DNA from: a virus
Taxonomy: Duplodnaviria; Caudoviricetes
Length of the DNA stretch: 64,000 nt
Strand: one strand, 5' to 3'
Virus record (IMG/VR): IMGVR_UViG_3300042013_000067
Location: 160,001 to 224,000 of that record
Part shown: positions 32,536 to 62,302 of the stretch, piece by piece
Layout of the letters: each line of letters starts with the position of its first letter
Numbering within the stretch: position 1 is the stretch's first letter
The notes under the pieces: model-generated
Seen by the model: only the letters and a program-made list of their open reading frames with translations
What the model was told of the DNA's origin: nothing
Databases searched by the model: none
Made by a program: the position numbers and the translations under genes

Positions 32536-33191
32536 ACTTCTTTAATATTGAGGGGCCGTGGGCAGGCATTGGGAGCCGTGAGGCACCGATGTCTGTTCAG
32601 CTCCTTATGGCCCGTTACGCCCGTACAGCGTATGACCTAAAACTGGGTCGGTTGCACAGCGGTGATGCCATCGCTTCAGACTTTGCATTCTGGGTAGGGG
32701 CACGACTGTCCAAGAACTTCTTCGAACTAGGGGCAAAGATCTTCTTGTCGAAGAACGGTTACCAAGGGCGCTGGCATGATGATCAGCTTGGCTTTATCAA
32801 TGCCAAGAGTCTCGACCCCATCAAGTATGAAATCGCGGGTAAGCTGGCTTATGAAGCACGTAAGGGCTTCTACGGACTCGGCACTGGCGGTAAAGAATTA
32901 GTAACACGTAACGCATTCCAGTTGTTAGATGAAGACCTCGAACACGCAGTGTCCAAATGTTTATACTGGGGTATTCCTCAAGGTAAAACCGAGAAAGTTC
33001 GCGGTGGTACCAACGTAGGGTTACAACTAGCAATCCTTTTCGATATTCCTCGGATGAACCTTTTCCATGAAGAGAACCAAAGGCTCCTCGAAGAGTGGCT
33101 GGCGCAAAAAGAAACAACCGAAGCCTACCCTAAACACCTCGACCGAATTATCGATTCCCGTCGTCAAGATCACCCGTGGCCAGGCTTCTGA
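32523..33191 (+). CDS. DprA/SMF-like SLOG-fold protein
   Basis: WAGIGSREAP...LHSGDAIASD...LVTRNAFQLL...VRGGTNVG. Confidence 0.7.
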   Translation: MCGIDFFNIEGPWAGIGSREAPMSVQLLMARYARTAYDLKLGRLHSGDAIASDFAFWVGARLSKNFFELGAKIFLSKNGYQGRWHDDQLGFINAKSLDPIKYEIAGKLAYEARKGFYGLGTGGKELVTRNAFQLLDEDLEHAVSKCLYWGIPQGKTEKVRGGTNVGLQLAILFDIPRMNLFHEENQRLLEEWLAQKETTEAYPKHLDRIIDSRRQDHPWPGF

Positions 33192-33393
33192 AGAAACCGC
33201 CCTGGACATGCTGTTTGTGCGGGACAACCTCGTGATGTCGATCGACACCGAGAAGACATACAGCGCCAATGAAGTCATCGACTACGTGGATCAAGGCATC
33301 GAAGGGGTTCTTCGAGTCGTAGAGAAAGGAGCGGAACCATGGAGCCTAACAATCGACATCTGTCAAGCCTACTTCGACAAAATAAACTCATAA
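33067..33393 (+). CDS. FDxIN-family module (start uncertain: 33067 or 33208)
   Basis: ...LFVRDNL...IEGVLRVVEK...ICQAYFDKINS*. Confidence 0.6.
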   Translation: MKRTKGSSKSGWRKKKQPKPTLNTSTELSIPVVKITRGQASEETALDMLFVRDNLVMSIDTEKTYSANEVIDYVDQGIEGVLRVVEKGAEPWSLTIDICQAYFDKINS

Positions 33394-33839
33394 CCGAGTC
33401 TGTCGTAACACCATTGTGGATTCGTCGAACCGTAGAGGAACGACTGAAGAAAGCATGGCCACAGATCCCGGTCTATGGACTGGAAGAGCTAGCCCACAAG
33501 GCAACCACGCCTCGCTTTGCGGAAGCCGTGCCTGTGGCAGATCGGGCTACGTTATTAGTGTTGATCTTGGGTGGTGAGGTCAACTTCCTAAATGCCTACC
33601 TAGAACGTCTCAGTACACTACACGGCATAAAAGAACTCCACCCTGATAATGGTGACCTGGTTGCCGCGGCCGACATCGCCGGTCGTCTTAGCGACTACAG
33701 TGGTTATAAGGTGCGCATCGTTGGGCTCACCAACTTCGTCCACCTCAATGAAATCGTCGATAGCCACATGCATGCCGGGCGTCTGGTGGGTATAACAGTC
33801 GACATACTTGAGTCTACAACTAACGGGGTATCAACATGA
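33339..33839 (+). CDS. Hypothetical protein, paralog of the next gene
   Basis: AAGGAG RBS; GYKVRIV...GRLVGITVDILE. Confidence 0.7.
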   Translation: MEPNNRHLSSLLRQNKLITESVVTPLWIRRTVEERLKKAWPQIPVYGLEELAHKATTPRFAEAVPVADRATLLVLILGGEVNFLNAYLERLSTLHGIKELHPDNGDLVAAADIAGRLSDYSGYKVRIVGLTNFVHLNEIVDSHMHAGRLVGITVDILESTTNGVST

Positions 33840-34336
33840 ATGATGTTATCCAGCAGCGGATTAAGAAACGTCGGGAAGAACTGGTTAATGAAGTGGCGTC
33901 ATTTCGTGAAGGGTTGGTAATGCCACTGGAGGCTCTGGTGCGTAAAGCAACCAGTGGTTTCCATGTGTTCCAGTACCCGAACCGGACCCGCCCGGCCCTG
34001 ATCTATTTCACGGTAGGTGAAGGGGTACAGGACGCTCTTCGACGGGTATGCGCCGTTATGGTCTCAGCATACAAAATGCAAGGTTTTGTACTGGATACTG
34101 AGGAAGGGTTACGACACGCTACCGTAGCCCTTACGGAGATGGTAAAGCGTATCGGCTATGACCTGCGCATTATCCATCTGCTGGATGCACGTGAGCTGAT
34201 TCGTACCGCGATCGAGTTACATGAAGTCGATGGTGGTCGGGTGGTAGGCATTGCTATTGACGAACTAGAGGACAAACACCATGACGGTAGTAGCAATGCA
34301 GCACACACTGCTGGAAACGATAGCAACGCCAACTGA
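33836..34336 (+). CDS. Hypothetical protein, paralog of the previous gene
   Basis: ATGA overlap; GYDLRII...GRVVGIAIDELE. Confidence 0.7.
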   Translation: MNDVIQQRIKKRREELVNEVASFREGLVMPLEALVRKATSGFHVFQYPNRTRPALIYFTVGEGVQDALRRVCAVMVSAYKMQGFVLDTEEGLRHATVALTEMVKRIGYDLRIIHLLDARELIRTAIELHEVDGGRVVGIAIDELEDKHHDGSSNAAHTAGNDSNAN

Positions 34337-34985
34337 CCTGATGAAAGCAATGCAGGCGGCGAAGCATCCGTACTATCAATCGAGCGATACCAGCGACAGC
34401 TTCAAGGACATCGGTGCGTTTCTCGAAAGCTGGAAAGACTATGATATTGACCTGAACCGGGTGATCCGTTGGGACATCCGTAATGTCGCCGACGATTTCC
34501 CCGATGCAGTAGACATGGAATCTTCGGACATCGACTACTACGGTCCGTGGGGTACACAGTACATCGATATTCATTACGTAGCTCCACGTAAAGGCCATAC
34601 GTTCAGCAATCGTATCCTCAACCTAAAACCAGGTGATATGCCGCGCCTCTACGCGTGGTTGAAGAAGCATTGGGAATACACACAGCTGATGTGGGATCCC
34701 ATCCCTACAACTGTCTACGTACCACCTGAGTCTCCCCGCAGTCGGTTCCTCGACAAGATTAAGTCGATTGTTGACTACCAGACTGTTGCACCAAGTGGTG
34801 ATGTCGGGCATGTCCATGATAAGCTCAGCGCCAAGATCCACACTGTGGCCCACAACATCCTTGAGGTACTCGACCAAGATTACATTTTGCTGGAGAAAGC
34901 GGATGATGATGGACAACCGTTGGATGTCTCTCTGAACATTGCCGGTGAACTGGCCAAGACTTACTTTGACGAGATCAACACATGA
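34281..34985 (+). CDS. Two-domain protein with a C-terminal FDxIN-family module
   Basis: ...AHNILEVLDQDYILL...NIAGELAKTYFDEINT*. Confidence 0.75.
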   Translation: MTVVAMQHTLLETIATPTDLMKAMQAAKHPYYQSSDTSDSFKDIGAFLESWKDYDIDLNRVIRWDIRNVADDFPDAVDMESSDIDYYGPWGTQYIDIHYVAPRKGHTFSNRILNLKPGDMPRLYAWLKKHWEYTQLMWDPIPTTVYVPPESPRSRFLDKIKSIVDYQTVAPSGDVGHVHDKLSAKIHTVAHNILEVLDQDYILLEKADDDGQPLDVSLNIAGELAKTYFDEINT

Positions 34986-35722
34986 GCGAAGCAGGGAAAC
35001 CACGTCGCCGGCTACGACTGCCTAGCCGGCTTGACTATAGTAGACTGGGTGAGATGCTGAAGCGGGAGCATGTTAGCGATGACCTGAAGGGGTTGGCAGC
35101 AACAGCATCGCCCGAAGCTGTGATCATGGTCATCCAGGAACTACACCGTTATGCCACCTACGTGCTGGCCCCACTTCGTCAGCATGACGAGCGGGCGACG
35201 TTCGATGGTTTCGACATGGTAGTGATCTATGTCCGCGCTGTGATTCGGGAACAGTTCGGTGGGGTATTCACACCATCGTTGGAACATGCAAAGTTGCTGG
35301 ACGACATCCAAAGTGATCCGCTGCATTCAACTATCAGCGAGATCTATAGTCTGCGTAACGTCCCGCACCATGACACCACTCGGATCCTGATCATGGTGAC
35401 TCAGATCCTCAAGCATTTAATGGAAACGCGCTCGGCTCTCCATGGGTTGCAGCCCGACTTTCTTCGTTGGATGCAGCACGACGCCATGTTACACACGTAT
35501 GTCGCTGTATGGTTGAATCGAGGCTTTGCTCGACGTGGGCTGACTCAACCCCGCTCTTTGGGTGAGAATGACGAGTGGCTATGGGAGCGACTGCGTGACG
35601 CACAGCGTGACGCTGGTGCTAGCAAGCGTGACTTCTTTAACCATTGGACAGCACCAAGGGAAAACCATCCAATTCCCCACAGCGATCTGTGTCCTGAAAT
35701 CCCTTACAAGGAAAAGCCTTAA
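34982..35722 (+). CDS. Hypothetical protein
   Basis: ATGA overlap; 246 aa. Confidence 0.7.
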   Translation: MSEAGKPRRRLRLPSRLDYSRLGEMLKREHVSDDLKGLAATASPEAVIMVIQELHRYATYVLAPLRQHDERATFDGFDMVVIYVRAVIREQFGGVFTPSLEHAKLLDDIQSDPLHSTISEIYSLRNVPHHDTTRILIMVTQILKHLMETRSALHGLQPDFLRWMQHDAMLHTYVAVWLNRGFARRGLTQPRSLGENDEWLWERLRDAQRDAGASKRDFFNHWTAPRENHPIPHSDLCPEIPYKEKP

Positions 35723-36460
35723 ATGTCAATTATGAACGACGTGTGGATCATCAAACAATCCACACCACCGACCCACATCCGTTTCCACGACGGCCAGCAA
35801 TTAGAGCCATGTTGGGCTGGTTTGAGCCACACCACTGAACAACTGGACGACTGGTGTCGTCGCTTCCACGCCACGGCGGTTACTGACAAGGTCCTCACCG
35901 AGGAACTTGAATGGCGCCCGATGATCGAGCCGTTCGTGCGTGAGTGTGTACGTAAAGTCGAAGACACCAAGGTGATCTCCTACGGTGTATCGAGCTTCGG
36001 TTACGACGTGCGTTTGGCTGCCGAGTTCAAGATCTTCACCAACGCCAATGGTGGTGTGATCGATCCGAAACGTCTGGACGAATCAGCCGTACTGATCGAT
36101 GGTATCGTGCGTATAGACGAATGGGGTGACCGCTATGTGATCCTGCCACCGAACAGCTACCTGCTGGGTCGTACCATGGAATACTTCATTATTCCACGGG
36201 ACATCATGGTGGTGTGTCTGGGCAAGTCGACCTACGCCCGCTCTGGTGCCATCGTTAACGTGACGCCGATCGAAGCTGAGTTCGAAGGTAACGTTGTAAT
36301 TGAAGTGAGTAACAGCACGACTCTCCCCATGAAGGTTTATGTAGGTGAGGGTATTTCGCAATTCCTCTTCTTTAAAGGTAACGAACCCTGCATGGTCTCC
36401 TACAAAGACCGTGGTGGCAAGTACCAAGGGCAAACCGGTATCACTAACGCCAAGGTGTGA
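35723..36460 (+). CDS. dcd: dCTP deaminase with a ~50-aa N-terminal insertion
   Basis: MIEPF...[14 protein letters not shown]...GKSTYARSG...[11 protein letters not shown]...[16 protein letters not shown]. Confidence 0.95.
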
Positions 36461-36461
36461 T

Positions 36462-36800
36462 ATGCCAAAACCGCTTGTGATGCGAGATCTTAATGAGATT
36501 GCTGACTACCTACTTGCTAATCACCACAAGTGTGCTCGCAGTCTGTTCGCTGTAATACGGCAGCGTATTGGGCAGGTTGAAGCACAGGTGGGTATAGGCT
36601 CTAAGTTTCAGTTCTTGCTTTCGGATGTGCAGCCTGGTTGTTTAGATCTGGACATAACCGACGATGTTCTATTCTTCCAAGCGTTCACGCTAGACCCGAC
36701 CAACGATCAGGTTATCGTTAAGACCAACACCCTGTATACACTCCATCGTGTCACAGGGCAACTGGTTGATTACACTGACAAACTAATGACTCTACATTAA
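36462..36800 (+). CDS. Hypothetical protein
   Basis: AAGGTG RBS; ATG 1 nt after the dcd stop. Confidence 0.65.
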   Translation: MPKPLVMRDLNEIADYLLANHHKCARSLFAVIRQRIGQVEAQVGIGSKFQFLLSDVQPGCLDLDITDDVLFFQAFTLDPTNDQVIVKTNTLYTLHRVTGQLVDYTDKLMTLH

Positions 36801-36808
36801 GGACGCCC

Positions 36809-37795
36809 ATGTCTCGATTTACAGTGTTGTACCACCGCGGTTGCAACGATGGCTTAGCGGCCGCTTGGGCAGCACGCGAGGTTTTGAAGGACCAAGCTAT
36901 CTACCTGCCATATCAATACGGTGATGAGATTCCAGTCGTGTGCTTGGGTACGCATCTGATCCTAGTGGATCTGTCGTTGACCCAAGACCAGATCAGTGAG
37001 ATCTATGATCAGGTCGTGATGTCGATCATGGTTGTGGACCACCATGCCAGTGCTGAGCGGGAGTTGATGGGTCTGGTTACGATGCCGACGTTTGACGCTT
37101 ACCGTGCTGCGATCAACTCACCGACTGGCTACAAAGTCTTCAAACTGTTCGATCAAGAACACTCCGGCGCCGTACTGAGCTGGGCGTTCTTTAATAACGT
37201 CAATACGCTTCGGTCGTACAACGAAGAATGGGTACATCGCATACCCAAGGCTTTGCTGTATATCGAAGACTACGACTTGTGGCGTCATGTCTATCCAGAG
37301 AGCAAAGCAGTTAATGCTTGGCTGATCAACGGCGGCGCCTCAATGGATCGCGTTAGTGACATGATCGACTATAAAGGCGACATTCACGAGAAGGTGCTTG
37401 AACTCGGCAACGCCATGATCAAGTACGACGAGAAGATTGCTCGCAGTGTGATCCGTGACTATGCTGAGGAGTACACATACGGCGACGGCACCATGGTCGT
37501 GATCAATGCACCGCACCACCTGCGAAACATGATCGGTGATCTACTGTCCTCGAAGTATTTGTTCGTGGTCTGTTACACCCGTCGTAAAGACCGGACCATA
37601 TTCAGCCTGCGCTCTCAACACTTTGATGTGAGTCCGATCGCTGAGCAGCATGGTGGCGGTGGGCATCGCAATGCCGCTGCATTCTCGGTACCGAATGCGC
37701 CTAACTACAACCTGCTCGCTCTCATGAGTAAGCCGTCGTTCATGTCTCGCCTGCGCATGGCGTTAACGGTTCTTTTCCCACGGAGATCCAAATGA
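36809..37795 (+). CDS. DHH/DHHA1-family phosphoesterase
   Basis: YHRGCNDG, VDLS, VDHH, SGAVLSW, IEDYDLW, FSLRS, GGGGHRNAAAF. Confidence 0.9.
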   Translation: MSRFTVLYHRGCNDGLAAAWAAREVLKDQAIYLPYQYGDEIPVVCLGTHLILVDLSLTQDQISEIYDQVVMSIMVVDHHASAERELMGLVTMPTFDAYRAAINSPTGYKVFKLFDQEHSGAVLSWAFFNNVNTLRSYNEEWVHRIPKALLYIEDYDLWRHVYPESKAVNAWLINGGASMDRVSDMIDYKGDIHEKVLELGNAMIKYDEKIARSVIRDYAEEYTYGDGTMVVINAPHHLRNMIGDLLSSKYLFVVCYTRRKDRTIFSLRSQHFDVSPIAEQHGGGGHRNAAAFSVPNAPNYNLLALMSKPSFMSRLRMALTVLFPRRSK

Positions 37796-37992
37796 AACAA
37801 GCCCCAAATCAGTTTAATGCGACCCAGTTGTTCCGTGACGGTTGGCCCATCCACACTGAAGTGGTGGTGAACGATGTGAAAGTCATCGTACCCGCTCGGC
37901 CGCTCGGTCTAGATACCATCCCTAACCGCTTCAAGCAAGCGTGGGCTGTGTTTACCGGTAAAGCTGACGCTCTGTACTGGACCGGTCAGTAA
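37792..37992 (+). CDS. Small hypothetical protein (PARPLG...AWAVFTGKADALYW)
   Basis: ATGA overlap; followed by a boundary element. Confidence 0.7.
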   Translation: MKQAPNQFNATQLFRDGWPIHTEVVVNDVKVIVPARPLGLDTIPNRFKQAWAVFTGKADALYWTGQ

Positions 37993-38032
37993 ACGGCATA
38001 GAGGAGCCCACCGAGGCTCCTCGTGTTATTCC
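37990..38032 (+). terminator. Boundary hairpin element
   Basis: TAA-A-CGGCATA-GAGGAGCC-CACCGA-GGCTCCTC-GTGTTATTCC. Confidence 0.7.
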
Positions 38033-38048
38033 CAGTTGTATAGAGGAC

Positions 38049-38056
38049 TATATCAC
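38049..38056 (+). promoter_or_regulatory. Early promoter core TATATCAC
   Basis: Intergenic, directly after a terminator. Confidence 0.65.
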
Positions 38057-38135
38057 CAGAGTGTATTAACTGAAACACCGAACCCCTGAAATGTGGCGTA
38101 GTCACAAACCTCATCAACTATTAAAGGATACACCG

Positions 38136-38531
38136 ATGGCCCGTTACGAAAACGACAGCGTTTACTTCAGTCTGCACACCGCCGACGACATTCGTCTGGA
38201 TCACGTCAAGCGCGATCAGCAAGTAGACATCGACATGATTATCACCGCGGTGGTGCTCACCAACACCGAGGACGACACCAGCGACATGGAGTACGGCTAC
38301 TTCCGTGCCAACCAACTCCAACCTGATGGTACTTGGAAAGAAATGCATGGTGACGACTTCACCTATGCTTTCCAACGGGCACTGCAGCCCCTGATCGAAG
38401 AATCCGGTCGCGCTACATCTGGCCCAATGCCCTGCATGATGCACAGTGAGTTCAAGTACACACACATCCCACTGCACCAAGCACGCAACTACCGCGCCAA
38501 GCTGGCCAGCGCAATCAAAAACAATATCTGA
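38136..38531 (+). CDS. Hypothetical protein
   Basis: AAGGA RBS before ATG 38136. Confidence 0.75.
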   Translation: MARYENDSVYFSLHTADDIRLDHVKRDQQVDIDMIITAVVLTNTEDDTSDMEYGYFRANQLQPDGTWKEMHGDDFTYAFQRALQPLIEESGRATSGPMPCMMHSEFKYTHIPLHQARNYRAKLASAIKNNI

Positions 38532-38576
38532 ATAAAGGGTGTGGGGTTCGTCCCCACACCTACCTAAGGAGTTGGT

Positions 38577-40665: not shown

Positions 40666-41055
40666 ATGGATTATAAGAAGGTCCGTTTCAACAGTGCTAA
40701 GCTGGAGTTCAGGGAAGAGCAACGTGGCTCTCTTACGATCCTCACCGCACGGAATCCAGAACTTAAAGCCGTCGTCAGGACACCGACGTTTGAAAGCCGC
40801 GGCTTTCTCTGTGAGTTCGTCGGTACCAAACACACATATGTCTACCAGGTAGAACCAGTGGGTGATACCGGGATCAATGCGCTGATTGCATTGGCTCAAT
40901 GTTTCTTTGTATCCAAACACTTCGACCATGTCGGTGATTTGGTGCAGCTCTGTTATACCCACTTGGGTGAGATCTATCGACACACGTTCGAGCGTGACCC
41001 TAAGTACGATCAACCTATCCTCATCTACCTCGATCAACTAAATGCTAAGGAATGA
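40666..41055 (+). CDS. Hypothetical protein
   Basis: 129 aa, operon context. Confidence 0.7.
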   Translation: MDYKKVRFNSAKLEFREEQRGSLTILTARNPELKAVVRTPTFESRGFLCEFVGTKHTYVYQVEPVGDTGINALIALAQCFFVSKHFDHVGDLVQLCYTHLGEIYRHTFERDPKYDQPILIYLDQLNAKE

Positions 41056-41507
41056 ACATCATGGATCAAAAGGCCTATAACCGCAAGGTTGTTGAACATC
41101 TCTTCGACCTGCTGGAGACCGCATGCGCCGATCGGTGGCACATGGTGTTCGACATGGTGTTCATCGAGGAGAAGCAACAGCTGGAACAGTTCGCTCAGGA
41201 TAATGTCCTGATCTTGAACTTCCACCCCTTGGCGTGTCGTAACATGCACATCGGTGATGAGTACATCACGGTCAATATGAAGTTGCAGGGCATGCCTATG
41301 CATCTGGTATTGCCATTCACCGCTATCCGCGGGATCCATTTGGAACTGGCCGAAGGTAACATCACTTTCGTGCCAGCTCAAGTGATGGTGATGATCGCCA
41401 TCGATGCACCGACACCCACAGGGGCGCACGATGAACCTAAACCACTGCCAGAGAACGTCATTCAGATGTTCGGCAAGAATCCTAAACCCACCACTAAAGA
41501 GAGCTAA
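41052..41507 (+). CDS. sspB: SspB-like (ClpXP adaptor fold) protein
   Basis: LILNFHPLACRNMHIGDEYITVNMKLQGMPMHLVLPFTAIRGI...EGNITF parallels SspB IVLNIAPRAVGNLELANDEVRFNARFGGIPRQVSVPLAAVLAIYARENGAGTMF; Pro-rich linker and short C-terminal tail. Confidence 0.7.
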   Translation: MNIMDQKAYNRKVVEHLFDLLETACADRWHMVFDMVFIEEKQQLEQFAQDNVLILNFHPLACRNMHIGDEYITVNMKLQGMPMHLVLPFTAIRGIHLELAEGNITFVPAQVMVMIAIDAPTPTGAHDEPKPLPENVIQMFGKNPKPTTKES

Positions 41508-41509
41508 GA

Positions 41510-42934
41510 ATGCGTCAGCTACTTGACCTCATGCAAGATATCCTCGACAACGGGGAACACAAAGACGACCGTACTCAGACTGGCACACTGTCGGTCTTTG
41601 GCCGAATGATGCGTTTCGATATTTCCGGCTTCAAGATACCTTGGGTTACTACCAAGTACGGTCATCCGGAAAGCATCATCCGTGAGCTGAAACTGTTCGT
41701 GAGTGGCACCGGTGAGATTGACTATCTCGCTCAGCACAACATCACCATCTGGGACGAGTGGGTTAAACAAAAATCTCGCGTCTACGCCACATTGACGGTG
41801 GCTGAGCGCTTGGCCAAGGTCAAGAAGAAAGATCGTGAAGCCGTTAACGCCGCTTTCGATCTGTTCCGTGAATCCCTCTACTCGGAAGACGAGGTTGCTG
41901 GTTGGGAACTCATGCCGTTGACTGGCAAGTACCGTGCGCCTGACATCAACGAGCATCTGCACAAGTGGATCGACGAGAACACCGAAGTGTCCCGTCAGAA
42001 GCTGGTCAAGGGTACGCTCGGTGGTGTGTATGGTGTGCAGTGGCGTAACTGGCCGGTCTCGAAAGAAACCCGTTCGTTGTCGCGCCGTAGTGCAGGTCGT
42101 GCGGTGGAAGCGATTGGTCAGTTCGACGAGATCAAGTCGCGCTTTGCTGATCCAACCGACTTCGATCTGTGGCTGCTCAAGGCCACTGGTTCTGAAGTCA
42201 TTACCCCAGAGACTGACGTCGATGACGGCGTGATCGCGGGTTGGTTGGTTGAACACGGTTATGCCCTGACTGAAGACATCACGGTCAGTTCCATCGATCA
42301 GATCGCCAAGGCTATCTACAAGCTGAAGAACGATCCGAACAGCCGTAGCATTATCGTTTCGGCTTGGAACCCGGCTGAACTGGCAGACATGGCTCTGGAG
42401 CCATGCCATACGTTGTTCCAGTTCTACAGTAACAATCTGAACAAGCGTCAGTTGGTGGATGTGATCTGGCGTTCGCCGCTGTTGCGTGTGGCGCTGATGC
42501 AGCTGTTGCCTCCAAACGAAACCGAGCGTGACTATGCGAAAGACGATCTGATCGCTCTGGACATGTCCGTACTGCGTGATTGGGCTGCTGATAAAGGCCT
42601 GCCTACCCGTGGTCTGAGCTGCTCGCTCTATCAAAGATCGGCGGATGTGTTCCTCGGCGTTCCGTTTAACATCTCCAGCTATTCGCTGCTGACCAAGATG
42701 TTTGCTCAGGTCGTGAACATGGAGCCGCTGGAGTTCATCTGGACCGGTGGTGACGTCCACATCTACAACAACCACATGGACCAGGTCAAGCTGCAACTGT
42801 CGCGTGAACCGAAGGAAGGTCCTTCGATTCTGCTAAACGCAGAAGTGACTGAGATCGATCAGTTCGAGTACAAAGACTTCGAGTTGGTCAACTACACCTA
42901 TCACCCGTCTATTCCCGCTCCAAAGGCGGTATAA
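41510..42934 (+). CDS. thyA: Thymidylate synthase ThyA with three large insertions
   Basis: DRTQTGT, IWDEW, YGVQWR, SRSIIVSAWN, MALEPCH, YQRSADVFLGVPFN, GDVHIY. Confidence 0.96.
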   Translation: MRQLLDLMQDILDNGEHKDDRTQTGTLSVFGRMMRFDISGFKIPWVTTKYGHPESIIRELKLFVSGTGEIDYLAQHNITIWDEWVKQKSRVYATLTVAERLAKVKKKDREAVNAAFDLFRESLYSEDEVAGWELMPLTGKYRAPDINEHLHKWIDENTEVSRQKLVKGTLGGVYGVQWRNWPVSKETRSLSRRSAGRAVEAIGQFDEIKSRFADPTDFDLWLLKATGSEVITPETDVDDGVIAGWLVEHGYALTEDITVSSIDQIAKAIYKLKNDPNSRSIIVSAWNPAELADMALEPCHTLFQFYSNNLNKRQLVDVIWRSPLLRVALMQLLPPNETERDYAKDDLIALDMSVLRDWAADKGLPTRGLSCSLYQRSADVFLGVPFNISSYSLLTKMFAQVVNMEPLEFIWTGGDVHIYNNHMDQVKLQLSREPKEGPSILLNAEVTEIDQFEYKDFELVNYTYHPSIPAPKAV

Positions 42935-42997: not shown

Positions 42998-43318
42998 ATG
43001 GAAATTTCCATTAAGTTACCCGACCCACTCCAGATCGTCAGAGAAGGACTGCTCGAAGAATTAATCAATACAGCTCGTTTCAGTTCCGACTGGGTAATGA
43101 GCAATAAGGAACTCCCCGATGACGTCCGTGAGTTGGTACACTACACGGCTGTTACTGCGGTCAGTAACGTGCTAGACGTTCTAGATGGCAACACGGATCA
43201 GGGACGGTATATACTACTGCCCATGAGTGTGGTCACGGATTTTACCAATGATGTCCCGACTATGACCGGTAACTTGTCGGAAGCCTTCTATGATCTCTAC
43301 GAGCGTATCAACAACTGA
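42998..43318 (+). CDS. FDxIN-family protein, tandem copy 1
   Basis: IKLPDPL...VSNVLDVLDG...YILLP...MTGNLSEAFYDLYERINN*. Confidence 0.8.
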   Translation: MEISIKLPDPLQIVREGLLEELINTARFSSDWVMSNKELPDDVRELVHYTAVTAVSNVLDVLDGNTDQGRYILLPMSVVTDFTNDVPTMTGNLSEAFYDLYERINN

Positions 43319-43326: not shown

Positions 43327-43668
43327 ATGCAGGTATACATCGATATCCCTGATCCACTGGACCGATACCGCAAGAAGTTGGTATCACAGATCGCCGATGC
43401 CACTGAAACAGTGGTTGAACGATTGGCACCACTGCCTGAGTCACACGAGCGTGAACTGGTACGTAATGCGGTAACCCACGCTACCAACGCAGTACTGCAA
43501 GTGTTGGACGGTGGGCAAGAGCTCCTTAGTCCGAGTTATGCACCGGGCTATGTGGTACTACCTGTGTCCATGGTTAAGTGTGAAGGTGAACGTCCTAACC
43601 TCGCCGGTGGATTATCCGAGGTATACATGGACCTCTTCGAATACGTCAACGATGGTGATGACGAATGA
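43327..43668 (+). CDS. FDxIN-family protein, tandem copy 2
   Basis: IDIPDPL...TNAVLQVLDG...YVVLP...NLAGGLSEVYMDLFEYVNDGDDE*. Confidence 0.8.
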   Translation: MQVYIDIPDPLDRYRKKLVSQIADATETVVERLAPLPESHERELVRNAVTHATNAVLQVLDGGQELLSPSYAPGYVVLPVSMVKCEGERPNLAGGLSEVYMDLFEYVNDGDDE

Positions 43669-43985
43669 ACCTACGGATTAACTTCCCTGATCCGCTACAC
43701 CAAGCACGGATGCATTTCATCGACGAGGTCTTGGACATTCGTGATGGTGCCATCCAACTGGCCGCAGCGGGTGGTATGGATGGTGAGTACCTAGGCCATG
43801 CTACTTTACTGCTCAACCACACCATCGAAAACATCCTGACTGTAATCGACGGCAACCCAAAGCAGGGTAGCGGTTACTTGATGGTTCCTAACTTCATGAT
43901 CGAGGAGGGTCAGACTTTCCACAACATGGCTGGCGACTTGGCGCAGTGTTTTAATTCACTGTTCGATGTGATCAATTTGAGGTGA
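43665..43985 (+). CDS. FDxIN-family protein, tandem copy 3
   Basis: INFPDPL...IENILTVIDG...YLMVP...NMAGDLAQCFNSLFDVINLR*. Confidence 0.8.
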   Translation: MNLRINFPDPLHQARMHFIDEVLDIRDGAIQLAAAGGMDGEYLGHATLLLNHTIENILTVIDGNPKQGSGYLMVPNFMIEEGQTFHNMAGDLAQCFNSLFDVINLR

Positions 43986-43988: not shown

Positions 43989-44318
43989 ATGGAAAAAGAA
44001 TCCCCACTGGGTATGGCTATTAACAAGGCGGCTGAACGAGCCACCGGTGAGCCAGACCAGATGCATGATCGGCGGGTGGATTTGATTGCCGCTGCTCTCG
44101 ATGTACGGGATGATGTCTACGAAGACGTCATGTTGCAATTCCCACCCGAGCTGCACGAGCCTGTTTGGAAAGCAATCACCGCGGGTGTCGGTGGCACCTT
44201 AGGTATTCTCGACAAGGACTATCTGGTCCTACCGAAGGAGTACCGCGAAGGTGATGTGAATATGGCGGGTGATCTCAAGCAGATCTTCTCCACGATTTAT
44301 GACGACATCAATACCTGA
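43989..44318 (+). CDS. FDxIN-family protein, tandem copy 4
   Basis: VGGTLGILDKDYLVLP...NMAGDLKQIFSTIYDDINT*. Confidence 0.8.
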   Translation: MEKESPLGMAINKAAERATGEPDQMHDRRVDLIAAALDVRDDVYEDVMLQFPPELHEPVWKAITAGVGGTLGILDKDYLVLPKEYREGDVNMAGDLKQIFSTIYDDINT

Positions 44319-46342: not shown

Positions 46343-46885
46343 TTGAGTTTGTTTATGAATTTCGATGACGCCTGCAAGAAATGTCCACCGGGTTACTCTA
46401 TCAAATCCCGTAACTGTGGCTGGAACGAGCATTACTGTCAATACGGTCGTGACCAGAAAGGTAACCTGTATTGGACAGCGGGTGGTACGGTCGGTGGCCA
46501 CCTTACTCCAAAAGATACCGTATCGGCACGGAATGGCGGTACTGATTACGAGATTTATAACTGGGGTCAGCGCGAACCTGCAACCAACTTACCTACTTTT
46601 GAGGAAGCATCTGAGCAGATTCGACTCAACTCAGTGGAGACCCATCGTAATACGCTGATTAATAAGATCCATGAAACAGTCACTACTAGGATGCAAGACA
46701 GTATTACCGCTGGTGTAGATCCGACAGTAGCCCAAAGTTTAGTCTACGGCACTACACGGGACATCCTTGGTCTGCTCGACACTAAAGTCCGGTTCGAACC
46801 AGTCTATACGGTATCCAGAAACAAGTATGCTGCGCCAAATTTGGCGGGTGGTTTGCTGGACCTGTTTGACAAGATCAATGGTTGA
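46343..46885 (+). CDS. Two-domain protein: Cys/Trp/Gly-rich N-terminus plus FDxIN-family module
   Basis: ...TRDILGLLD...NLAGGLLDLFDKING*; start may be ATG 46355. Confidence 0.7.
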   Translation: MSLFMNFDDACKKCPPGYSIKSRNCGWNEHYCQYGRDQKGNLYWTAGGTVGGHLTPKDTVSARNGGTDYEIYNWGQREPATNLPTFEEASEQIRLNSVETHRNTLINKIHETVTTRMQDSITAGVDPTVAQSLVYGTTRDILGLLDTKVRFEPVYTVSRNKYAAPNLAGGLLDLFDKING

Positions 46886-55909: not shown

Positions 55910-55976
55910 GGTCTAACGCCGAAAGGCACAGCGTCACCAACCATCGGCGGTGACATTAAAGTAAGGAGCCCACACT

Positions 55977-56606
55977 GTGGCTGATCAATACCTGCACCAC
56001 GCACCACAAATTCTGGCCATCCTGACACGTCAGGCTTGTGCCAAACAACCAATCACCTATGGCGACATTGCTGAGGAGATTGGTATTGCCCGTAAGGGTA
56101 ACCACATGGTCAACGTAATGAACTCGGCGTTGTCGCGTTTGTTCTTCTGGTGTGCGCACAATAACCTGCCACACCTGACCTCACTGGCGGTCCGTACGAC
56201 TGAACGTGTTCCCGGTGTAGGGTTCTGGGACTTACTCGGACAACGTGGTTTGTCGTTGACTGACCAACGGGCATTCCTGCAGGTGATCCATCAGGAGGTC
56301 TATCGCTATTATGAGCCAGTGTCGCAGATCGGGCCAGCGGCTATTCTGCCGTTTGTCGACTCGGTTAACTACGAGTTCGGTAAGGCCCATGGTGTTAACT
56401 TCTGCGAATGTCGTGTGGCATTCCCAGGTGGTAGCGCTGCACGGCGTCTGGTCTACGTTACGGGAGATCGTAATAAGGCTATGGTCGATGCCTTGGAAGA
56501 AACCATGGAGTTTGTGGTTAAGTCGATTAGCCACAGTACAGCTACTACGCTGGAAGCAGCTAGTTTCAACACACTACGTACTCTGGTAATGGGAGAGGCG
56601 GCATGA
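55977..56606 (+). CDS. Protein with an N-terminal winged-HTH-like domain
   Basis: PITYGDIAEEIG...ALSRL...CAHNNLPHLTSLAVR...VPGVGFW; AAGGAG RBS, GTG start. Confidence 0.6.
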   Translation: MADQYLHHAPQILAILTRQACAKQPITYGDIAEEIGIARKGNHMVNVMNSALSRLFFWCAHNNLPHLTSLAVRTTERVPGVGFWDLLGQRGLSLTDQRAFLQVIHQEVYRYYEPVSQIGPAAILPFVDSVNYEFGKAHGVNFCECRVAFPGGSAARRLVYVTGDRNKAMVDALEETMEFVVKSISHSTATTLEAASFNTLRTLVMGEAA

Positions 56607-57253
56607 ACGATCAATACTACGTTTACCAGCTTGTCTGTACCAGTAAGTCCTACATAGACTCCATTACGCCCCGGTCTGTTTTGGTGAGTGGGTTCGCTGG
56701 TTTTGATAATACCGATGTTCATTTCATGGCTAGTGGCTTCTACAGCCTGTCTAAAGATCCAGTTCATGTTCTGGAAGATGCGATCCAGCATCTCATCGAA
56801 CGGCGGCGTGAGTTCCAACTCGATATGCTTGAGCTCGATGATCTCGGTATGGGTGCTGGTGAAGGCATGGAGAGTGTGGAGTACGTCATGCCGGATGGCG
56901 TGGTGCAGGAAGAAGCAGCCAACCTCACTCAGGTTAGCATGCTACTGCAAGACGCTGCACACAATCACCTCGAAATGGTACAGGGTATTCATCTAACCGT
57001 CACTGAAGCCGTGAGCTTTAAAGACAGTCTAAGCATCGACAAAGCGAAGCGCTTCCTCAATGCCCCTGATGAGTTCATTGGTATTTTTAGCATTCCTGAC
57101 ACTCATGCACTCGCCATGCAAACCCGGCAGCAACTGCGCGATCTGAAGGAATTCGTCAAGTATCGTCTACTTGGCCGTGTGGAATTTCAGGAACAGCTGG
57201 ATAAGCTGGTGTACGATCTCGAACAACGTTTCCCTGCTGAAACTTATATTTAA
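56603..57253 (+). CDS. Hypothetical protein
   Basis: ATGA overlap; 216 aa. Confidence 0.75.
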   Translation: MNDQYYVYQLVCTSKSYIDSITPRSVLVSGFAGFDNTDVHFMASGFYSLSKDPVHVLEDAIQHLIERRREFQLDMLELDDLGMGAGEGMESVEYVMPDGVVQEEAANLTQVSMLLQDAAHNHLEMVQGIHLTVTEAVSFKDSLSIDKAKRFLNAPDEFIGIFSIPDTHALAMQTRQQLRDLKEFVKYRLLGRVEFQEQLDKLVYDLEQRFPAETYI

Positions 57254-57292
57254 CGGCATATGGTCCACGGGGTTTCCCGTGGACCTTTATGG
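57251..57292 (+). terminator. Boundary hairpin element
   Basis: TAA-CGGCATA-TGGTCCACGGG-GTTT-CCCGTGGACC-TTTATGG. Confidence 0.75.
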
Positions 57293-57302
57293 AGATATTG
57301 AC

Positions 57303-57845
57303 ATGTCCGCATCACGTGAGTTTCAACACGATCTGGGTATGTGGGATCGCTGGCTTGGGTGGTTGAGAAAGCACCCGTTGTATGACCCTGACCTGACGGC
57401 TAAGGCCATAGCGCTTTATGCCTACTACTACTGTGACCATGCCGGGCATACGACGTTATCGGCGGATGACTATGCCGCAGCCATCGAAGCGATCATACCC
57501 AATTCCTCGGTGAACTTTAATGCATTACTCAACCAAGGTGAATGGGAACGTTGGGTAGCGACATGGGCTGGTCTGCACATCAAGCACGCCATCGATAGAC
57601 CGCGTGGATGCAATCGGCTACTGGCACTGATTGAGCATCGGTACATCGAACCGATCACTCCTAAGGAACTGGTTAAGGCCCTGATGGGTGGTTGTGCTGT
57701 TTATGATGAGTTGGTTGATACCAGCTCGACTATCGAATTGTCCCAGGACATGAGCGACGCGACTATGCGTGGCATTATAGTTGACCATCCACAAGCAGAT
57801 ATGTCATGGGAGGAATTGTACGATGCGGCAAAGACTGGAAATTGA
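57303..57845 (+). CDS. Hypothetical protein
   Basis: GGAG RBS; start reassigned. Confidence 0.7.
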   Translation: MSASREFQHDLGMWDRWLGWLRKHPLYDPDLTAKAIALYAYYYCDHAGHTTLSADDYAAAIEAIIPNSSVNFNALLNQGEWERWVATWAGLHIKHAIDRPRGCNRLLALIEHRYIEPITPKELVKALMGGCAVYDELVDTSSTIELSQDMSDATMRGIIVDHPQADMSWEELYDAAKTGN

Positions 57846-58470
57846 TCTATTGTTAGGGTTGGATACGCTGAAGCAAAATCCGGGTATTTCGGTATTCTTC
57901 CAAGTGGCACAAGAGTTTGGCCGCAAAGTCGAGCTTTTGGAAGGTTATCTTCAGGAGTTTATATACCGGGCTCCTGATGCACTGATTAGCCCTGGTAACA
58001 ATTATGGCCATATGTCCGGTGGTCTGGACTTGGCTGTGCAGGACATGTCCGGCGGTTGGGCTGAAGCTGCGATCCAACGCGAGATCGGTCGTAAGTACCT
58101 GAATGAACTCAGCGTTGGTCAAGCCCTGCTCGTTAGCAACCCGGTCGGTCGGGTTAAACATGTGATCTATGCTCCGACCATGCGCGCACCAAAGAAACTT
58201 GAATGGGGAAACGATGTCCCGTACCGAGCGACACTGGCCGCATTGCAACAAATTCACCAGTACAACACAGCTAACCCGGCGTCACCGATCATCCGAGTGG
58301 TGACGCCGATGATGGGTGTGGGTACGGGTGAGATCCCAGCTGTCACTGCATTAACGCAACAAGCGCTGGCTCTGCATCGCTACAGCTATGAAGAGCCAGT
58401 GGATCATCTGTTTCGTGATGGCGCCGCTAATGACGAACTCATTAGCAACACGTGGCCGAAACGGTTCTAA
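57823..58470 (+). CDS. Macrodomain (ADP-ribose hydrolase / Appr-1''-p processing)
   Basis: DALISPGNNYGHMSGGLDLAV...VGQALLV...VIYAPTMRAP...VVTPMMGVGTG. Confidence 0.9.
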   Translation: MRQRLEIDLLLGLDTLKQNPGISVFFQVAQEFGRKVELLEGYLQEFIYRAPDALISPGNNYGHMSGGLDLAVQDMSGGWAEAAIQREIGRKYLNELSVGQALLVSNPVGRVKHVIYAPTMRAPKKLEWGNDVPYRATLAALQQIHQYNTANPASPIIRVVTPMMGVGTGEIPAVTALTQQALALHRYSYEEPVDHLFRDGAANDELISNTWPKRF

Positions 58471-58501
58471 CCGACATAAGGCAGGGGCTAACCCCTGCCT
58501 G
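58468..58501 (+). terminator. Boundary hairpin element
   Basis: TAA-CCGACATAA-GGCAGGGG-CTAA-CCCCTGCC. Confidence 0.7.
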
Positions 58502-58526
58502 TACTTAATCGAAGTAACTAGAGGTC

Positions 58527-58534
58527 TATATTAC
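58527..58534 (+). promoter_or_regulatory. Early promoter core TATATTAC
   Basis: Exact phiKZ consensus, intergenic. Confidence 0.7.
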
Positions 58535-58575
58535 CCACCTGATGTAAACCGCTGTAACCTAACCAGGAGTTAATC

Positions 58576-59259
58576 ATGAACCGCATAAAAGCTTTGCTAT
58601 GCATCGCGGGTACGTTGTTTGGTGTTTCGGCTTTTGCTGATGTTGCCTTCTACGAGCGACCGCCTTTCATGGCGGAGTCTATGCCGCGTAAGATCGATTG
58701 TGTATTGCAGTCTAGCCACTATGGCCAGTGTCTGGGTGGTTATACTGCGCCGTCCAGCATGCATGTAAAAATAGCTAACCCTGATGGTAGCGACGTTCAC
58801 GTCACGACGATCAACCCGTTAGTTACAGTGGATTGCCAGCAAGGGATCTGCAGCGAAACCACCAGCCATCGGCCTGTGGGTGATTTGAAGATGGTGCATC
58901 TGCCACCTGAATACATCATCCGTTGGACTATGGTCGATGGTTACTACTTGTATCACGACGACAGTGGTGTCGCGGCTTATAAGCGCGGCTTTGGCCCATT
59001 GGCTGATAAATACCCACCGTATCAAATCATCACTGAGCCTGTACAGCGGATGCAAACGCTGACCGATACAACAGGCACTTATGATGTTGTATGCTTACCT
59101 GCTTCTGATACCTGTACGTATAAAGGTAAGGTTGTAGATCGGGCTGCACTAAGCCAGTTAATTCCCAAGAAGCGGAGTGACTGGTGTGACCAAGAGTTCT
59201 GCTACGCCAATAAATTCGGGGAAGGCGTAGTGGGTCTAAACCCAGACGGGTTATTGTAA
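58576..59259 (+). CDS. Secreted Cys-rich protein
   Basis: AGGAG RBS; signal peptide ...FGVSAFA; multiple Cys pairs. Confidence 0.8.
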   Translation: MNRIKALLCIAGTLFGVSAFADVAFYERPPFMAESMPRKIDCVLQSSHYGQCLGGYTAPSSMHVKIANPDGSDVHVTTINPLVTVDCQQGICSETTSHRPVGDLKMVHLPPEYIIRWTMVDGYYLYHDDSGVAAYKRGFGPLADKYPPYQIITEPVQRMQTLTDTTGTYDVVCLPASDTCTYKGKVVDRAALSQLIPKKRSDWCDQEFCYANKFGEGVVGLNPDGLL

Positions 59260-59297
59260 TCGACTTGAGGGCGATCCCTCTACCTTTTGAGGTACAA

Positions 59298-59594
59298 ATG
59301 GAAGCACTCGGCATTTTACTCTGCATCTACTTTTACTACCGTTGCTATAAGGTAGCTTCTCATCTACTTGGGCCATTAGGCGATTCTAATATTCAAATGT
59401 TGCACAATCGCTTTTTTACAGCAAAGAATGCCGCGACCACGATTGTGGTGGACGGTTTGTTGCGTGGACTAGCGATTAGTGCATCCCCAATCTTCGGGGT
59501 TCCTGAACTTACTGTGGTCTTGATCTTTCATACGTGCATCACCGCAGCCGGTATAACCACGGCTGTACAGCGTAGTATCCAAGGGCGTCTGTAA
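59298..59594 (+). CDS. Small membrane protein
   Basis: GAGGT RBS; 2-3 hydrophobic segments. Confidence 0.6.
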   Translation: MEALGILLCIYFYYRCYKVASHLLGPLGDSNIQMLHNRFFTAKNAATTIVVDGLLRGLAISASPIFGVPELTVVLIFHTCITAAGITTAVQRSIQGRL

Positions 59595-59959
59595 AGAATT
59601 ACAGCTCCTGTAGATGGTTTGCGTTGATGGCATGTCGCTCTCACCGTAGACAAGGATGCTACCGATGCTTAGCTCGATGCTTTTGCTTCTTGCTTTGTCG
59701 GTGCAGCACTCCAATGAACAACCCCGGTACTATAGCAAGACACACCTGCATACGGACGATTCGCACTGGGTGGTACCCCGTGCCTATCCATCTACGCCGC
59801 CGCGCTCCTATCGCCCGCCTCATCAACGGGCGCGACCTTGGCCGCGTTTGTCCGTGATTGCCTGTACTTGCACCGGCTTCCTTCGCCCATCTGGGTTACT
59901 GGCACACGGCAAGGGTCCGTGTAAGCTAGAACTCCCTGATCGGCATACGAGGAGGCACT

Positions 59960-60163
59960 ATGTACTCCATTGGGTATCTGTTGCATTGGGCGCTGTCCGA
60001 TAGCTGCTTTACTGCTCTCCGGCTAGCTATGCGGTTGAGCCGTAGTTTAATCTTGACGAGACCGCTGTTCCATCGCGCTGCAAACCCCGTCGCAGGGAAA
60101 GATAATCTTAATGTATCCCAGGTAACCCATAAACCTCTATCCGTGCACTTGGCTAAGGTCTAG
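59960..60163 (+). CDS. Small hypothetical protein
   Basis: GAGGAGG RBS. Confidence 0.45.
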   Translation: MYSIGYLLHWALSDSCFTALRLAMRLSRSLILTRPLFHRAANPVAGKDNLNVSQVTHKPLSVHLAKV

Positions 60164-60212
60164 GTCAGCACCCATAGAGACGACTGGGAAAGTTAAGCTT
60201 TCCATTGCGACT

Positions 60213-60258
60213 GTAAAGAGCCCCGCGCTGGGGCTCTTTATGCCCCTTTTATGCCGTC
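60213..60258 (+). terminator. Boundary hairpin with a duplicated TTTATGCC tail
   Basis: TAAAGAGCCCC-GCGCT-GGGGCTCTTTA-TGCC-CCTTTTATGCCGTC. Confidence 0.7.
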
Positions 60259-60281
60259 TCGCTTATTAGGAGTGAGCTTTT

Positions 60282-61148
60282 ATGCCACCTCGTCTTAAAG
60301 AAATGTACACTCGCTTTACGAGCTTCTTTGAACAGGAGCTGCTTAATCGCGTACGCAATAATCCACTTCAAACACCGTCCACCGATCTGGGTAATGATAC
60401 CGTGCAGCCTGCCGACCTTTTGCTCAGCCACACCCAAGCTCATTTCCCGGCATACGAACCTACGCCGGAAGATGAACACATCCTCAGCCAACTGGCTGAT
60501 AACCAATCGAATGACCCTATCCATGTGTTAGCGCGCAAGATTGACTCGTTCGACAAGTACTACACCTACTCCGATACCGCCAGTACACTCGCAGACGGCG
60601 ATCGGTTGTCCAAGGAACTCACCGAGGGCATCGCCGCAGTTGAAGATGCACGCGTGCGTGGGATTCTGGGTCGGTCGATGTGGGCCGATGTGCGCAGTGA
60701 GTTGTTAGTCGAGTTCCCATGGTTGGAAACACGCTTTCGCAGTACCGCGTACACCCGACTGATTGCTGAAGGCGTTCCTCCAGAGAATGCCAAAGTATGG
60801 GTCGGTACAATCAATGGACTACGCGACCTGATGGCCCGCGTCTATATCGCCGCTAACGCTACTGGTCAGCTGTTGGTGTGGGCCAATGATTACGAACGGG
60901 CACGCTACTATGACCGTTTCCGTAAGAACGATCTGTTCTGCGGTGTAGCTCTACCGCCAGCGCTGTATGTGGAGGTCGACGCATTGGCTGATATGATCGA
61001 CAGCCGTGGCTTCCGCCAAGCACTGGCTTTGGGTAAATCTGAATACAGTGTCGTTCGCCAAGTTTTGGAGAATGGCGACTGGATGTACACCGTACATCGA
61101 TTCGATAACCCGATGCTGAGTTTCTTCTTCGCAGCTAAGCCGGCTTAA
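60282..61148 (+). CDS. Hypothetical protein
   Basis: AGGAG RBS; 288 aa. Confidence 0.8.
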   Translation: MPPRLKEMYTRFTSFFEQELLNRVRNNPLQTPSTDLGNDTVQPADLLLSHTQAHFPAYEPTPEDEHILSQLADNQSNDPIHVLARKIDSFDKYYTYSDTASTLADGDRLSKELTEGIAAVEDARVRGILGRSMWADVRSELLVEFPWLETRFRSTAYTRLIAEGVPPENAKVWVGTINGLRDLMARVYIAANATGQLLVWANDYERARYYDRFRKNDLFCGVALPPALYVEVDALADMIDSRGFRQALALGKSEYSVVRQVLENGDWMYTVHRFDNPMLSFFFAAKPA

Positions 61149-61199
61149 ACCCGGCCTTACCTATCCTCAACGCACTACCCAACCAAAGGAAACTTCACT

Positions 61200-61766
61200 A
61201 TGTCAGATTCTAACGAAACCTTCGGCGCCAATGCTACAGCAGTACCATGCAATCCACTCGGCGCGTACAAGCTGGGTGACCATGAAGGCGATAGGGCGCA
61301 AAAGGACATCGTACCGTTCCAACTGACTATCATCGACCTGCATGAGTTGGTCACCGGTAGTATCGCTGATAAACGTCGCTTGGCTATCGCACCAGAACGC
61401 ATGGGTCGTGCTCTGATGGCATATAACCGTGCGATCGGTGAAGCGATTCTGGAAACCAAGACTTACACCGTGCTGATGATGACGGTTACGTTGGATCAGG
61501 CCAAAGAGGTCGAAAATCTGGTCTTCCAACAACCGACACTGGGTATGTCTATGGGTATGCCCCCAGGGCGTGCCGGTGGTTACATTGGTGCACAGCAATT
61601 GCAGTTCGCCGTGTTCTCTGACCTGACCCAACCTGGTGTTCATATCAGCCTGCATCCGTACGTGTGTCAAGGTTTGGGTGGTGTGGGTGAAGGCGCAATG
61701 ATTAACATCGCCCTAGGTCTGCTGTTAGGTGAAGACCAGAACATCGGTCTTGGCTTCGGTAAGTAA
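61200..61766 (+). CDS. Hypothetical protein
   Basis: AAGGA RBS; 188 aa. Confidence 0.8.
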   Translation: MSDSNETFGANATAVPCNPLGAYKLGDHEGDRAQKDIVPFQLTIIDLHELVTGSIADKRRLAIAPERMGRALMAYNRAIGEAILETKTYTVLMMTVTLDQAKEVENLVFQQPTLGMSMGMPPGRAGGYIGAQQLQFAVFSDLTQPGVHISLHPYVCQGLGGVGEGAMINIALGLLLGEDQNIGLGFGK

Positions 61767-62002
61767 TCATTAAGGTGCGGGGTAGCTTCGGCTGCCCTGC
61801 ATCTTTTCTTTTTTGCCGTCTGCAAGGTTCTACTGGGGTGCCCCTTATACAGACAGAAAGCAGTAGCTTCGCATACACCCAAGTACCTTACCGGTACCTG
61901 TCTATGCCCTCTCAGTTACTGCCTATGGACTCTTACACCTCGGGTACGCCCAATGTACCCTTTAGCTACTAATGGCGCCCTAGCGCCTTATAGGAGGCTT
62001 CA

Positions 62003-62302
62003 ATGAACAGTAAACTACCATTGACTTCTGTTGAAGAACTAGAAGAAGTAATGGAGCTGATTGGAGACACGTTCTATACCTGCCTTTCCTTTAATCGGGA
62101 TAAGGCTGTCAGTACTGCCACTCAAGAAGGGATGTCTGAAGAACGAGCTCGGTTGATCAAGGATTCAGTTAACGCGGGTGTGCGTGCCACACTGTCTACC
62201 ATTGAAGAACTCAATGGAGAGATTCGGTTTAAGACCCGTGGTGTCACCGCTATCTTAGCGGGTGATCTTGTCCGTGGTATGTTCGATGAAATCAATAATT
62301 GA
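62003..62302 (+). CDS. FDxIN-family protein (standalone)
   Basis: AGGAGG RBS; VNAGVRATLSTIE...ILAGDLVRGMFDEINN*. Confidence 0.75.
   Translation: MNSKLPLTSVEELEEVMELIGDTFYTCLSFNRDKAVSTATQEGMSEERARLIKDSVNAGVRATLSTIEELNGEIRFKTRGVTAILAGDLVRGMFDEINN

Follow-up and report, generated by a model that had tools for sequence, protein, structure and literature searches.

A C-Terminal Heptad Shared by Two Unrelated Protein Families of Pseudomonas Jumbo Phages, and Varying in Concert Between Them

Introduction

This report concerns a family of small helical proteins, and the seven-residue C-terminal tail they carry, in a stretch of phage DNA of 64,000 nucleotides (IMG/VR record IMGVR_UViG_3300042013_000067). 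This whole stretch, hereafter the window, covers positions 160001-224000 of a 283,622-bp genome that is bounded by direct terminal repeats. A chimallin homolog is encoded in it (25476-27347, 623 residues, 37% identity over 595 residues to 201phi2-1 gp105, E 2e-122), and on this ground the phage is assigned to the nucleus-forming chimalliviruses, which agrees with the placement in Chimalliviridae made by the initial annotation of the window. The closest named relative is Pseudomonas phage Noxifer, with about 57% protein identity over the genes tested, and a megablast search gave no match in a phage collection from which records of this genome or near ones may be absent.

The initial annotation had proposed a single modular family of eight open reading frames (ORFs), with a tail fixed at the C-terminus and unrelated domains fused at the N-terminus of some members. 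That description holds. We also find the same tail at the same terminal position on a second, non-homologous protein family, the relatives of phiKZ gp186, and in seven phages the two tails change together.

The Helical-Module Family

All eight ORFs proved to be present on the plus strand, and their products align over the segments ILxVLD, YxLxP and NLAGDL and over a terminal [FY][DE]x[IV]N. Four of them form a tandem array. The first (42998..43318, 106 residues, ending YERINN) lies directly 3' of the thymidylate synthase gene and matches phrog_18616 (E 2e-27). It is followed by a copy of 113 residues at 43327..43668, whose tail FEYVN is extended by DGDDE, four acidic residues and a glycine, and whose best Noxifer match is only 32% identical. 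The third (43665..43985, 106 residues, ending FDVINLR) was chosen for structure modelling, and the fourth (43989..44318, 109 residues) ends YDDINT.

The remaining four are dispersed, and two of them are fusions, as had been claimed. The protein at 34281..34985 (234 residues, ending FDEINT) carries an N-terminal domain of about residues 1-140 (phrog_7880, E 3e-47) ahead of a module at residues 136-234, and its residues 19-141 correspond to proteins that stand alone in KVP40-like Vibrio phages. The one at 46343..46885 (180 residues, TTG start, ending FDKING) joins an N-terminal stretch of about 90 residues, rich in Cys, to a module at residues 92-180, and is 65% identical to its Noxifer ortholog. 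Among metagenomic relatives there are further N-terminal extensions, of 50-140 residues, in which Pfam and PHROG searches recognised no family. A stand-alone member at 62003..62302 (99 residues, ending FDEINN) does not have the YxLxP segment. The most divergent member, at 33067..33393 (108 residues, ending FDKINS), is devoid of both YxLxP and NLAGDL, and is 73% identical to its Noxifer ortholog. Its first 21 residues (33067-33130) are rich in Lys and Arg and absent from the other copies; they may represent a nucleic-acid- or membrane-binding extension.

Two additional members lie beyond the window. The ninth, 1.5 kb past its end (genome 225479-225886), has 135 residues and ends MFNDVNN. The tenth, 6.7 kb past the end (genome 230743-231012), has 89 residues, ends LFGSVNS and, at 85% identity to its Noxifer ortholog, is the best-conserved copy.

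Family membership was assessed by leave-one-out hidden Markov models (HMMs), each run over the full set of 1,457 ORFs in the genome. The omitted member came top among non-members in six of eight cases (E 9e-14 to 1e-3, the upper value being that of 46343); 62003 came second (E 3e-3), and 33067 was a weak third (E 0.78). The modules are thus recovered as one family for seven of the eight at E <= 3e-3, with 33067 needing its orthologs in the profile. Such an external profile, for which only homologs from other genomes were used and which includes the orthologs of each member, recovered all eight at E 8.5e-26 to 3e-8 (33067 at 3e-8, 46343 at 2e-18, 62003 at 1e-11) together with the ninth, and an iterated search added the tenth and brought 33067 to E 3e-12.

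Distribution Among Chimalliviruses

Over six complete chimallivirus genomes the iterated search converged on 33 members: 10 in this phage, 11 in Noxifer, 5 in PS119XW, 3 in 201phi2-1, and 2 each in PhiPA3 and the phiKZ-like PA7. Sub-threshold copies are also present in the same tandem arrays, and the Pseudomonas chimalliviruses other than this phage and Noxifer (n=5) have 2-6 members each. The scan suggested by the initial annotation, of copy number and distance to the stop codon in other chimalliviruses, therefore gives 2-11 copies per genome, with the motif at the C-terminal end in the six genomes. When the profile was run against 1.84 billion cluster representatives, only 35 proteins matched at E <= 1e-3, and every named source of a match was a Pseudomonas jumbo phage or a metagenome. 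The family has so far been found only in nucleus-forming jumbo phages that infect Pseudomonas.

Orthologs include Noxifer gp293-gp297, 201phi2-1 gp369, gp376 and gp377, PhiPA3 gp306 and gp313 and, according to a note in the PhiPA3 record, phiKZ gp258. They occupy the same genome neighbourhoods in these phages and are annotated as hypothetical. The matching PHROG families, phrog_18616 for the stand-alone module, phrog_7880 for the fusion of the 34281 type and, weakly, phrog_11061 (E 3e-18 to 2e-27), are homologous to the module and likewise hypothetical; they hold no record of the terminal heptad, of the fusions or of a link to gp186.

Syntenic tandem arrays of four to six small genes, with ends of the form W/F-x-x-[IV]-[NS]-x, were seen in 201phi2-1 (264-268 kb), PhiPA3 (264-268 kb), PS119XW (256-261 kb) and Psa21 (259-264 kb). 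Several copies in these arrays are too diverged for the HMM, and in those of 201phi2-1 and PhiPA3 the aromatic residue of the tail is mostly Trp.

Predicted Structure of the Module

The AlphaFold2 model of the third tandem copy, made from a 39-sequence alignment, has three helices (predicted local distance difference test, pLDDT, 90.3; predicted TM-score, pTM, 0.78). A helical hairpin (10-35 and 40-62) is followed by a short extended segment that contains YxLxP and by a C-terminal helix (92-105), which starts at NLAGDL and finishes with the tail.

The initial annotation recognised no named family, and searches bear this out. No Pfam family scored above threshold for any of the eight proteins, and PHROG assigned no function. 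With the module model, Foldseek against the PDB gave nothing meaningful (E > 0.6), VIA wide returned generic helical pieces (best Z 6.4), and the AlphaFold DB clusters reached E >= 0.04 at best, one weak 'pyrophosphatase' row included. A PDB profile search and the ESM Atlas gave no meaningful match, and BFVD returned only Noxifer paralogs and one Psa21 protein.

The C-Terminal Tail

The last seven residues of the module read hydrophobic, aromatic, D/E, x, I/V, N/S, x, stop, and this tail is the best-conserved part of every copy. The module is C-terminal in the 35 database representatives, the end of the profile coincides with the end of the protein in nearly all of them, and 33 of the 35 have N (or D) as their penultimate residue. 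The expectation that the motif adjoins the stop in homologs is therefore borne out. Within this genome the pattern [FY][DE].[IV]N occurs 16 times in 195,905 ORF residues, nine of them in the last 12 residues of an ORF. Across the six genomes, 62 ORFs finish in [FYW]xx[IV][NS]x-stop, where 14.8 would be expected.

Conserved C-terminal peptides that dock onto a hub, such as the acidic tip of the single-stranded DNA-binding protein (SSB), are used or recognised by several proteins. The SSB tip (DDDIPF) and the clamp-binding tails of phages resemble the heptad in being conserved acidic and hydrophobic peptides at the extreme C-terminus of several proteins. The SSB tip, however, ends in an obligatory Phe, whereas the heptad ends in N/S plus a small polar residue, and its carriers are neither SSB nor polymerases. 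Neither an SSB tip (terminal Phe, ...IPF) nor a clamp motif of the QL[SD]LF type was found in the tails, which end in N/S plus S, T, N or G. A clamp-type hub was considered and set aside, as the papers on the Rhc RNase H-clamp hold no terminal-motif evidence for it; chimalliviruses are described as having no canonical ring clamp (PMC13648698). Mimicry of the C-terminal segment of chimallin was also rejected, since chimallin ends ...GTMTY or ...SSFY in six phages.

The Same Tail on the gp186-like Family

The second carrier in the window is a plus-strand gene at 13139..13915, of 258 residues as the longest ORF, which ends MFDDINS and matches phrog_16459 (E 2e-29). It is the homolog of phiKZ gp186, 201phi2-1 gp283 and PhiPA3 gp222. 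The gene is present in a single copy per genome, upstream of the thymidylate kinase gene in relatives, and in a curated phage collection the family occurs only in Pseudomonas phages. The tail [LM]-F-[EDA]-D-[VI]-[NS]-[SN]-stop terminates 42 of 43 full-length gp186-like homologs and, judged from this set, is conserved over the genus-level diversity of these phages. The phiKZ gene is reported to be transcribed early, and its antisense knockdown to have strongly lowered plaque counts (bioRxiv 10.1101/2024.07.31.605949).

The two families have the heptad in common, with matching lineage variants. When module and gp186-like family are compared profile to profile with hhalign, only the last seven residues align, and the terminal peptide is identical at seven of eight positions. 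The gp186-like protein is single-copy, unlike the expanded module family, and its own structural model (pLDDT 89.6) is of the alpha+beta type and has a sheet of three strands plus a terminal helix, so that the two domains are predicted to be different folds. Pfam, PHROG function and Foldseek PDB searches gave nothing usable for the gp186-like domain, and the AlphaFold DB clusters gave one uncharacterised protein only.

An orphan protein of 132 residues in 201phi2-1 (230892-231290, plus strand), with a Cys-containing N-terminal part, ends DFFSEVSN, the tail variant of that phage; it has no detectable homology to the module or to the gp186-like family. Another 201phi2-1 candidate, at 126645-127037, was dropped as a tail carrier, its homologs being without the tail.

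Co-Variation of the Two Tails

The tails of the two families were compared in seven phages: this phage, Noxifer, PS119XW, PA7, Psa21, 201phi2-1 and PhiPA3. At positions -6, -3 and -2 the residue of the gp186-like tail belongs to the class that most helical-family members of the same phage have, and this is so in all 21 phage-by-position comparisons. In both families position -2 is N in five phages (this phage, Noxifer, PS119XW, PA7 and Psa21) and S in the other two (201phi2-1, three of five family members; PhiPA3, five of five). Position -3 is I in the helical family where the gp186-like protein has I, and V where it has V, a majority rule that applies in seven of seven phages. Position -6 is aromatic in both families, and aliphatic in both in Psa21.

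Different codons are used for Ser (TCT, TCG, AGC), and third codon positions are variable along the whole tail. These differences indicate that selection acts on the tail peptide and that the changes did not arise by copying of one DNA stretch. A nucleotide-level element beneath the tail codons, such as a promoter or ribosome-binding site, was ruled out for a similar reason, as both the synonymous sites and the downstream contexts vary. PhiPA3 and the phiKZ-type phages have the same host species and different tail variants (ISN versus VNS), which argues weakly for a reader encoded by the phage rather than by the host.

A Proposed Portable Recognition Peptide

We favour the reading that the heptad is a portable recognition peptide at the C-terminus, addressed to a common partner, and give it a probability of about one half. 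The helical domain would present the heptad, and the N-terminal domains fused ahead of the module would be its cargo. The gp186-like proteins would use the same peptide, all carriers within one phage would dock to one common partner, and that partner would co-evolve with the tag. The candidates are the phage's SspB-like ClpX adaptor, with timed handover to host ClpXP, a shell or import factor of the phage nucleus, or the tails of the other carriers. A common partner predicts the same heptad on an unrelated fold as well as concerted changes, which a pure helix end does not. The docking or sorting signal suggested in the initial annotation thus gains indirect support from a seven-residue tail that recurs on a different predicted fold and co-varies across seven phages.

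Several points weigh against this reading. No binding partner for the tail was found, and according to a review (PMC12908238) the known nuclear cargo of chimalliviruses is not selected by a terminal signal. The co-variation comes from seven phages only, of which two, this phage and Noxifer, are sister taxa. The chimallin tree does not resolve the branching of the other four, nor whether 201phi2-1 and PhiPA3 are sisters, and thus gives no count of independent N-to-S events. Several of the Psa21, PhiPA3 and 201phi2-1 members compared fall below HMM significance and were accepted by array position or a BLAST link. Three lineages tolerate two to four residues after the motif, mostly acidic (DGDDE, LR, EDD). 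A free carboxylate directly after N-x is accordingly not required, so the proposal that the free C-terminus itself is the signal is slightly weakened, while the anchoring of the motif at the protein end stands. Lastly, in both the module and the gp186-like models the tail forms the last turns of an amphipathic helix, and by helical periodicity its L, F and I side chains probably face the domain core. Conservation of the tail may therefore be partly structural.

Taken to its end, this last point becomes an alternative in which the heptad is only a structural helix end, a hydrophobic core contact closed by an Asn/Ser C-cap, with no partner and with its occurrence in gp186-like proteins owed to convergence or chance. 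Asn and Ser are common helix-capping residues, the spacing of L, F and I (i, i+1, i+4) fits a core-facing stripe, the tail lies in the terminal helix of both models, and extensions after the motif are tolerated. Yet the terminal peptide is almost identical on two otherwise unalignable folds and is kept in nearly every gp186-like homolog, and the between-family matches at three variable positions, complete in the phages compared, are not what independent structural constraints in different folds would predict. We regard this explanation as unlikely.

Direct contacts between tails would likewise predict a shared heptad and concerted changes. Here the helices that end the family members and the gp186-like protein would pack into homo- or hetero-oligomeric bundles, and a polar N/S layer would have to change together in all subunits. 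Coiled coils are known to contain buried Asn residues paired in layers. Such contacts would explain the coordinated N-to-S and aromatic-to-aliphatic switches, and ten paralogs are co-encoded in operon-like plus-strand runs behind copies of CTATATNAC, a promoter-like motif described below. The module, however, is modelled with confidence as a monomer on its own (pTM 0.78), and we judge bundling through the tails very unlikely.

An SspB-like Adaptor as Candidate Reader

Bacterial SspB recognises the ssrA tag at the C-terminus of its substrates and brings them to ClpXP. A putative ClpX adaptor of this kind, an SspB-like protein of 151 residues (Pfam SspB PF04386, 32.5 bits against a cut-off of 27, E 1e-7), is encoded on the plus strand at 41052..41507, just upstream of the thymidylate synthase gene and about 1.5 kb upstream of the tandem array. 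All seven phages compared have homologs of it, PHIKZ232 (the phiKZ gp232 family) among them. The longer homologs (PA7, PS119XW, PhiPA3 and Psa21) end L-T-[VL]-I-[KQ]-G-G-K-K, which we take to resemble the ClpX-binding end of bacterial SspB. In this genome and in Noxifer the protein is of a short form that ends NVIQMFGK... and NVVSLFPKH, respectively.

This adaptor could read the tail and pass its carriers on to host ClpXP, which would remove or remodel them at a set time. The proximity of an adaptor gene above the Pfam cut-off to the array, its presence throughout the compared phages and the precedent of bacterial SspB, which reads a C-terminal tag, all speak for the proposal. As in the ssrA/SspB/ClpXP system, unrelated proteins share a short C-terminal peptide, and an SspB-like protein is present, in this case encoded by the phage. 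In Erwinia phage RAY, an SspB-like ClpXP adaptor is located in the cytoplasm (PMC10299810).

Other observations point away from it. The ssrA tag (AANDENYALAA) is added to its substrates, whereas the heptad is a different sequence, predicted to be helical and genetically encoded, and it leaves no further C-terminal residues for ClpX. Outside this phage and Noxifer, 10-25 kb separate the adaptor gene from the arrays. Moreover, RAY, an Erwinia chimallivirus that was not searched for tail carriers, has the SspB-like gene, while the gp186-like family is confined to Pseudomonas phages in the curated collection. The adaptor as reader of the tail is, in our estimate, distinctly unlikely.

Evolutionary Tempo and Genomic Neighbourhood

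The tandem array and the dispersed members differ in evolutionary tempo. Noxifer has five array copies to the four of this phage, and of these four, three share only 32-47% identity with Noxifer, where the genome median is 62%; the dispersed members, at 56-85%, are conserved at ordinary levels. By this comparison, rapid turnover is a property of the array and not of the whole family. The result bears on a further idea from the initial annotation, in which the copies are diversifying binders directed against host defence. In a wider form of this idea they might also serve host takeover, with the variable helical surface as the active part and the tail needed for folding only. Turnover of the array and a copy number that ranges from 2 to 11 between phages agree with it, and the description could apply at most to the array. 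It does not suit the dispersed copies with their ordinary conservation, nor the fact that the tail, rather than the variable surface, is the most constant part of each copy. No defence-related family was matched in Pfam and PHROG searches (PADLOC was left out). Among the alternatives weighed here, we consider this one the least probable.

The family genes are surrounded by nucleotide-metabolism and replication genes, among them a dCTP-deaminase-like protein, a DHH/DHHA1 phosphoesterase and an RNase H, the last inferred from synteny with Noxifer. The thymidylate synthase gene (41510-42934, plus strand) encodes 474 residues, in which the Pfam domain is found in two stretches; it therefore has a large insertion relative to the 266-position Pfam profile. 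The Noxifer enzyme has 522 residues. This setting, together with a different motif, distinguishes the family from the DUF7941 (PF25613) virion paralogs of jumbo phages, for which no Pfam match was found among the eight proteins. The 201phi2-1 orthologs of the family are not flagged as virion proteins in the record of that phage.

The motif CTATATNAC occurs six times in the window (13043, 15318, 32046, 38048, 46904 and 58526), always on the plus strand, against 1.5 expected. Each copy stands at the head of a plus-strand gene run, and we therefore call the motif promoter-like. One copy precedes the gp186-like gene, and other copies head runs that contain family members.

Implications for Nucleus-Forming Phages

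The shared, co-varying tail is a new feature of a family that is lineage-restricted and uncharacterised. The literature searched makes no mention of the family, of the heptad or of a gp186 function beyond the knockdown phenotype, and neither the papers on phage-nucleus import nor the transposon-insertion sequencing (TnSeq) paper mentions gp186 or the family.

A more far-reaching conjecture, which we offer tentatively and think unlikely as a whole, is that the heptad serves as a phage-private address label in Pseudomonas chimalliviruses. The labelled cohort would comprise gp186 and up to eleven small adaptor-like proteins, some with cargo, expressed from promoter-headed plus-strand operons, and the label would be read by one co-evolving phage receptor, which could be the SspB-like ClpX adaptor, for programmed clearance, or a factor of the nucleus shell or import. 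If true, this would be the first terminal sorting or turnover code for nucleus-forming phages.

The tag ties gp186, a gene sensitive to knockdown, to an expanded family of paralogs. Most genes of jumbo phages have no known function, and a role could follow from the tag for 2-11 hypothetical genes per phiKZ-like genome. The phiKZ-like phages serve both as models and as candidates for therapy, and a tag of only seven residues offers a cheap experimental handle on them. It could expose a new hub in the takeover of the host by the phage, in protein turnover or in compartment targeting.

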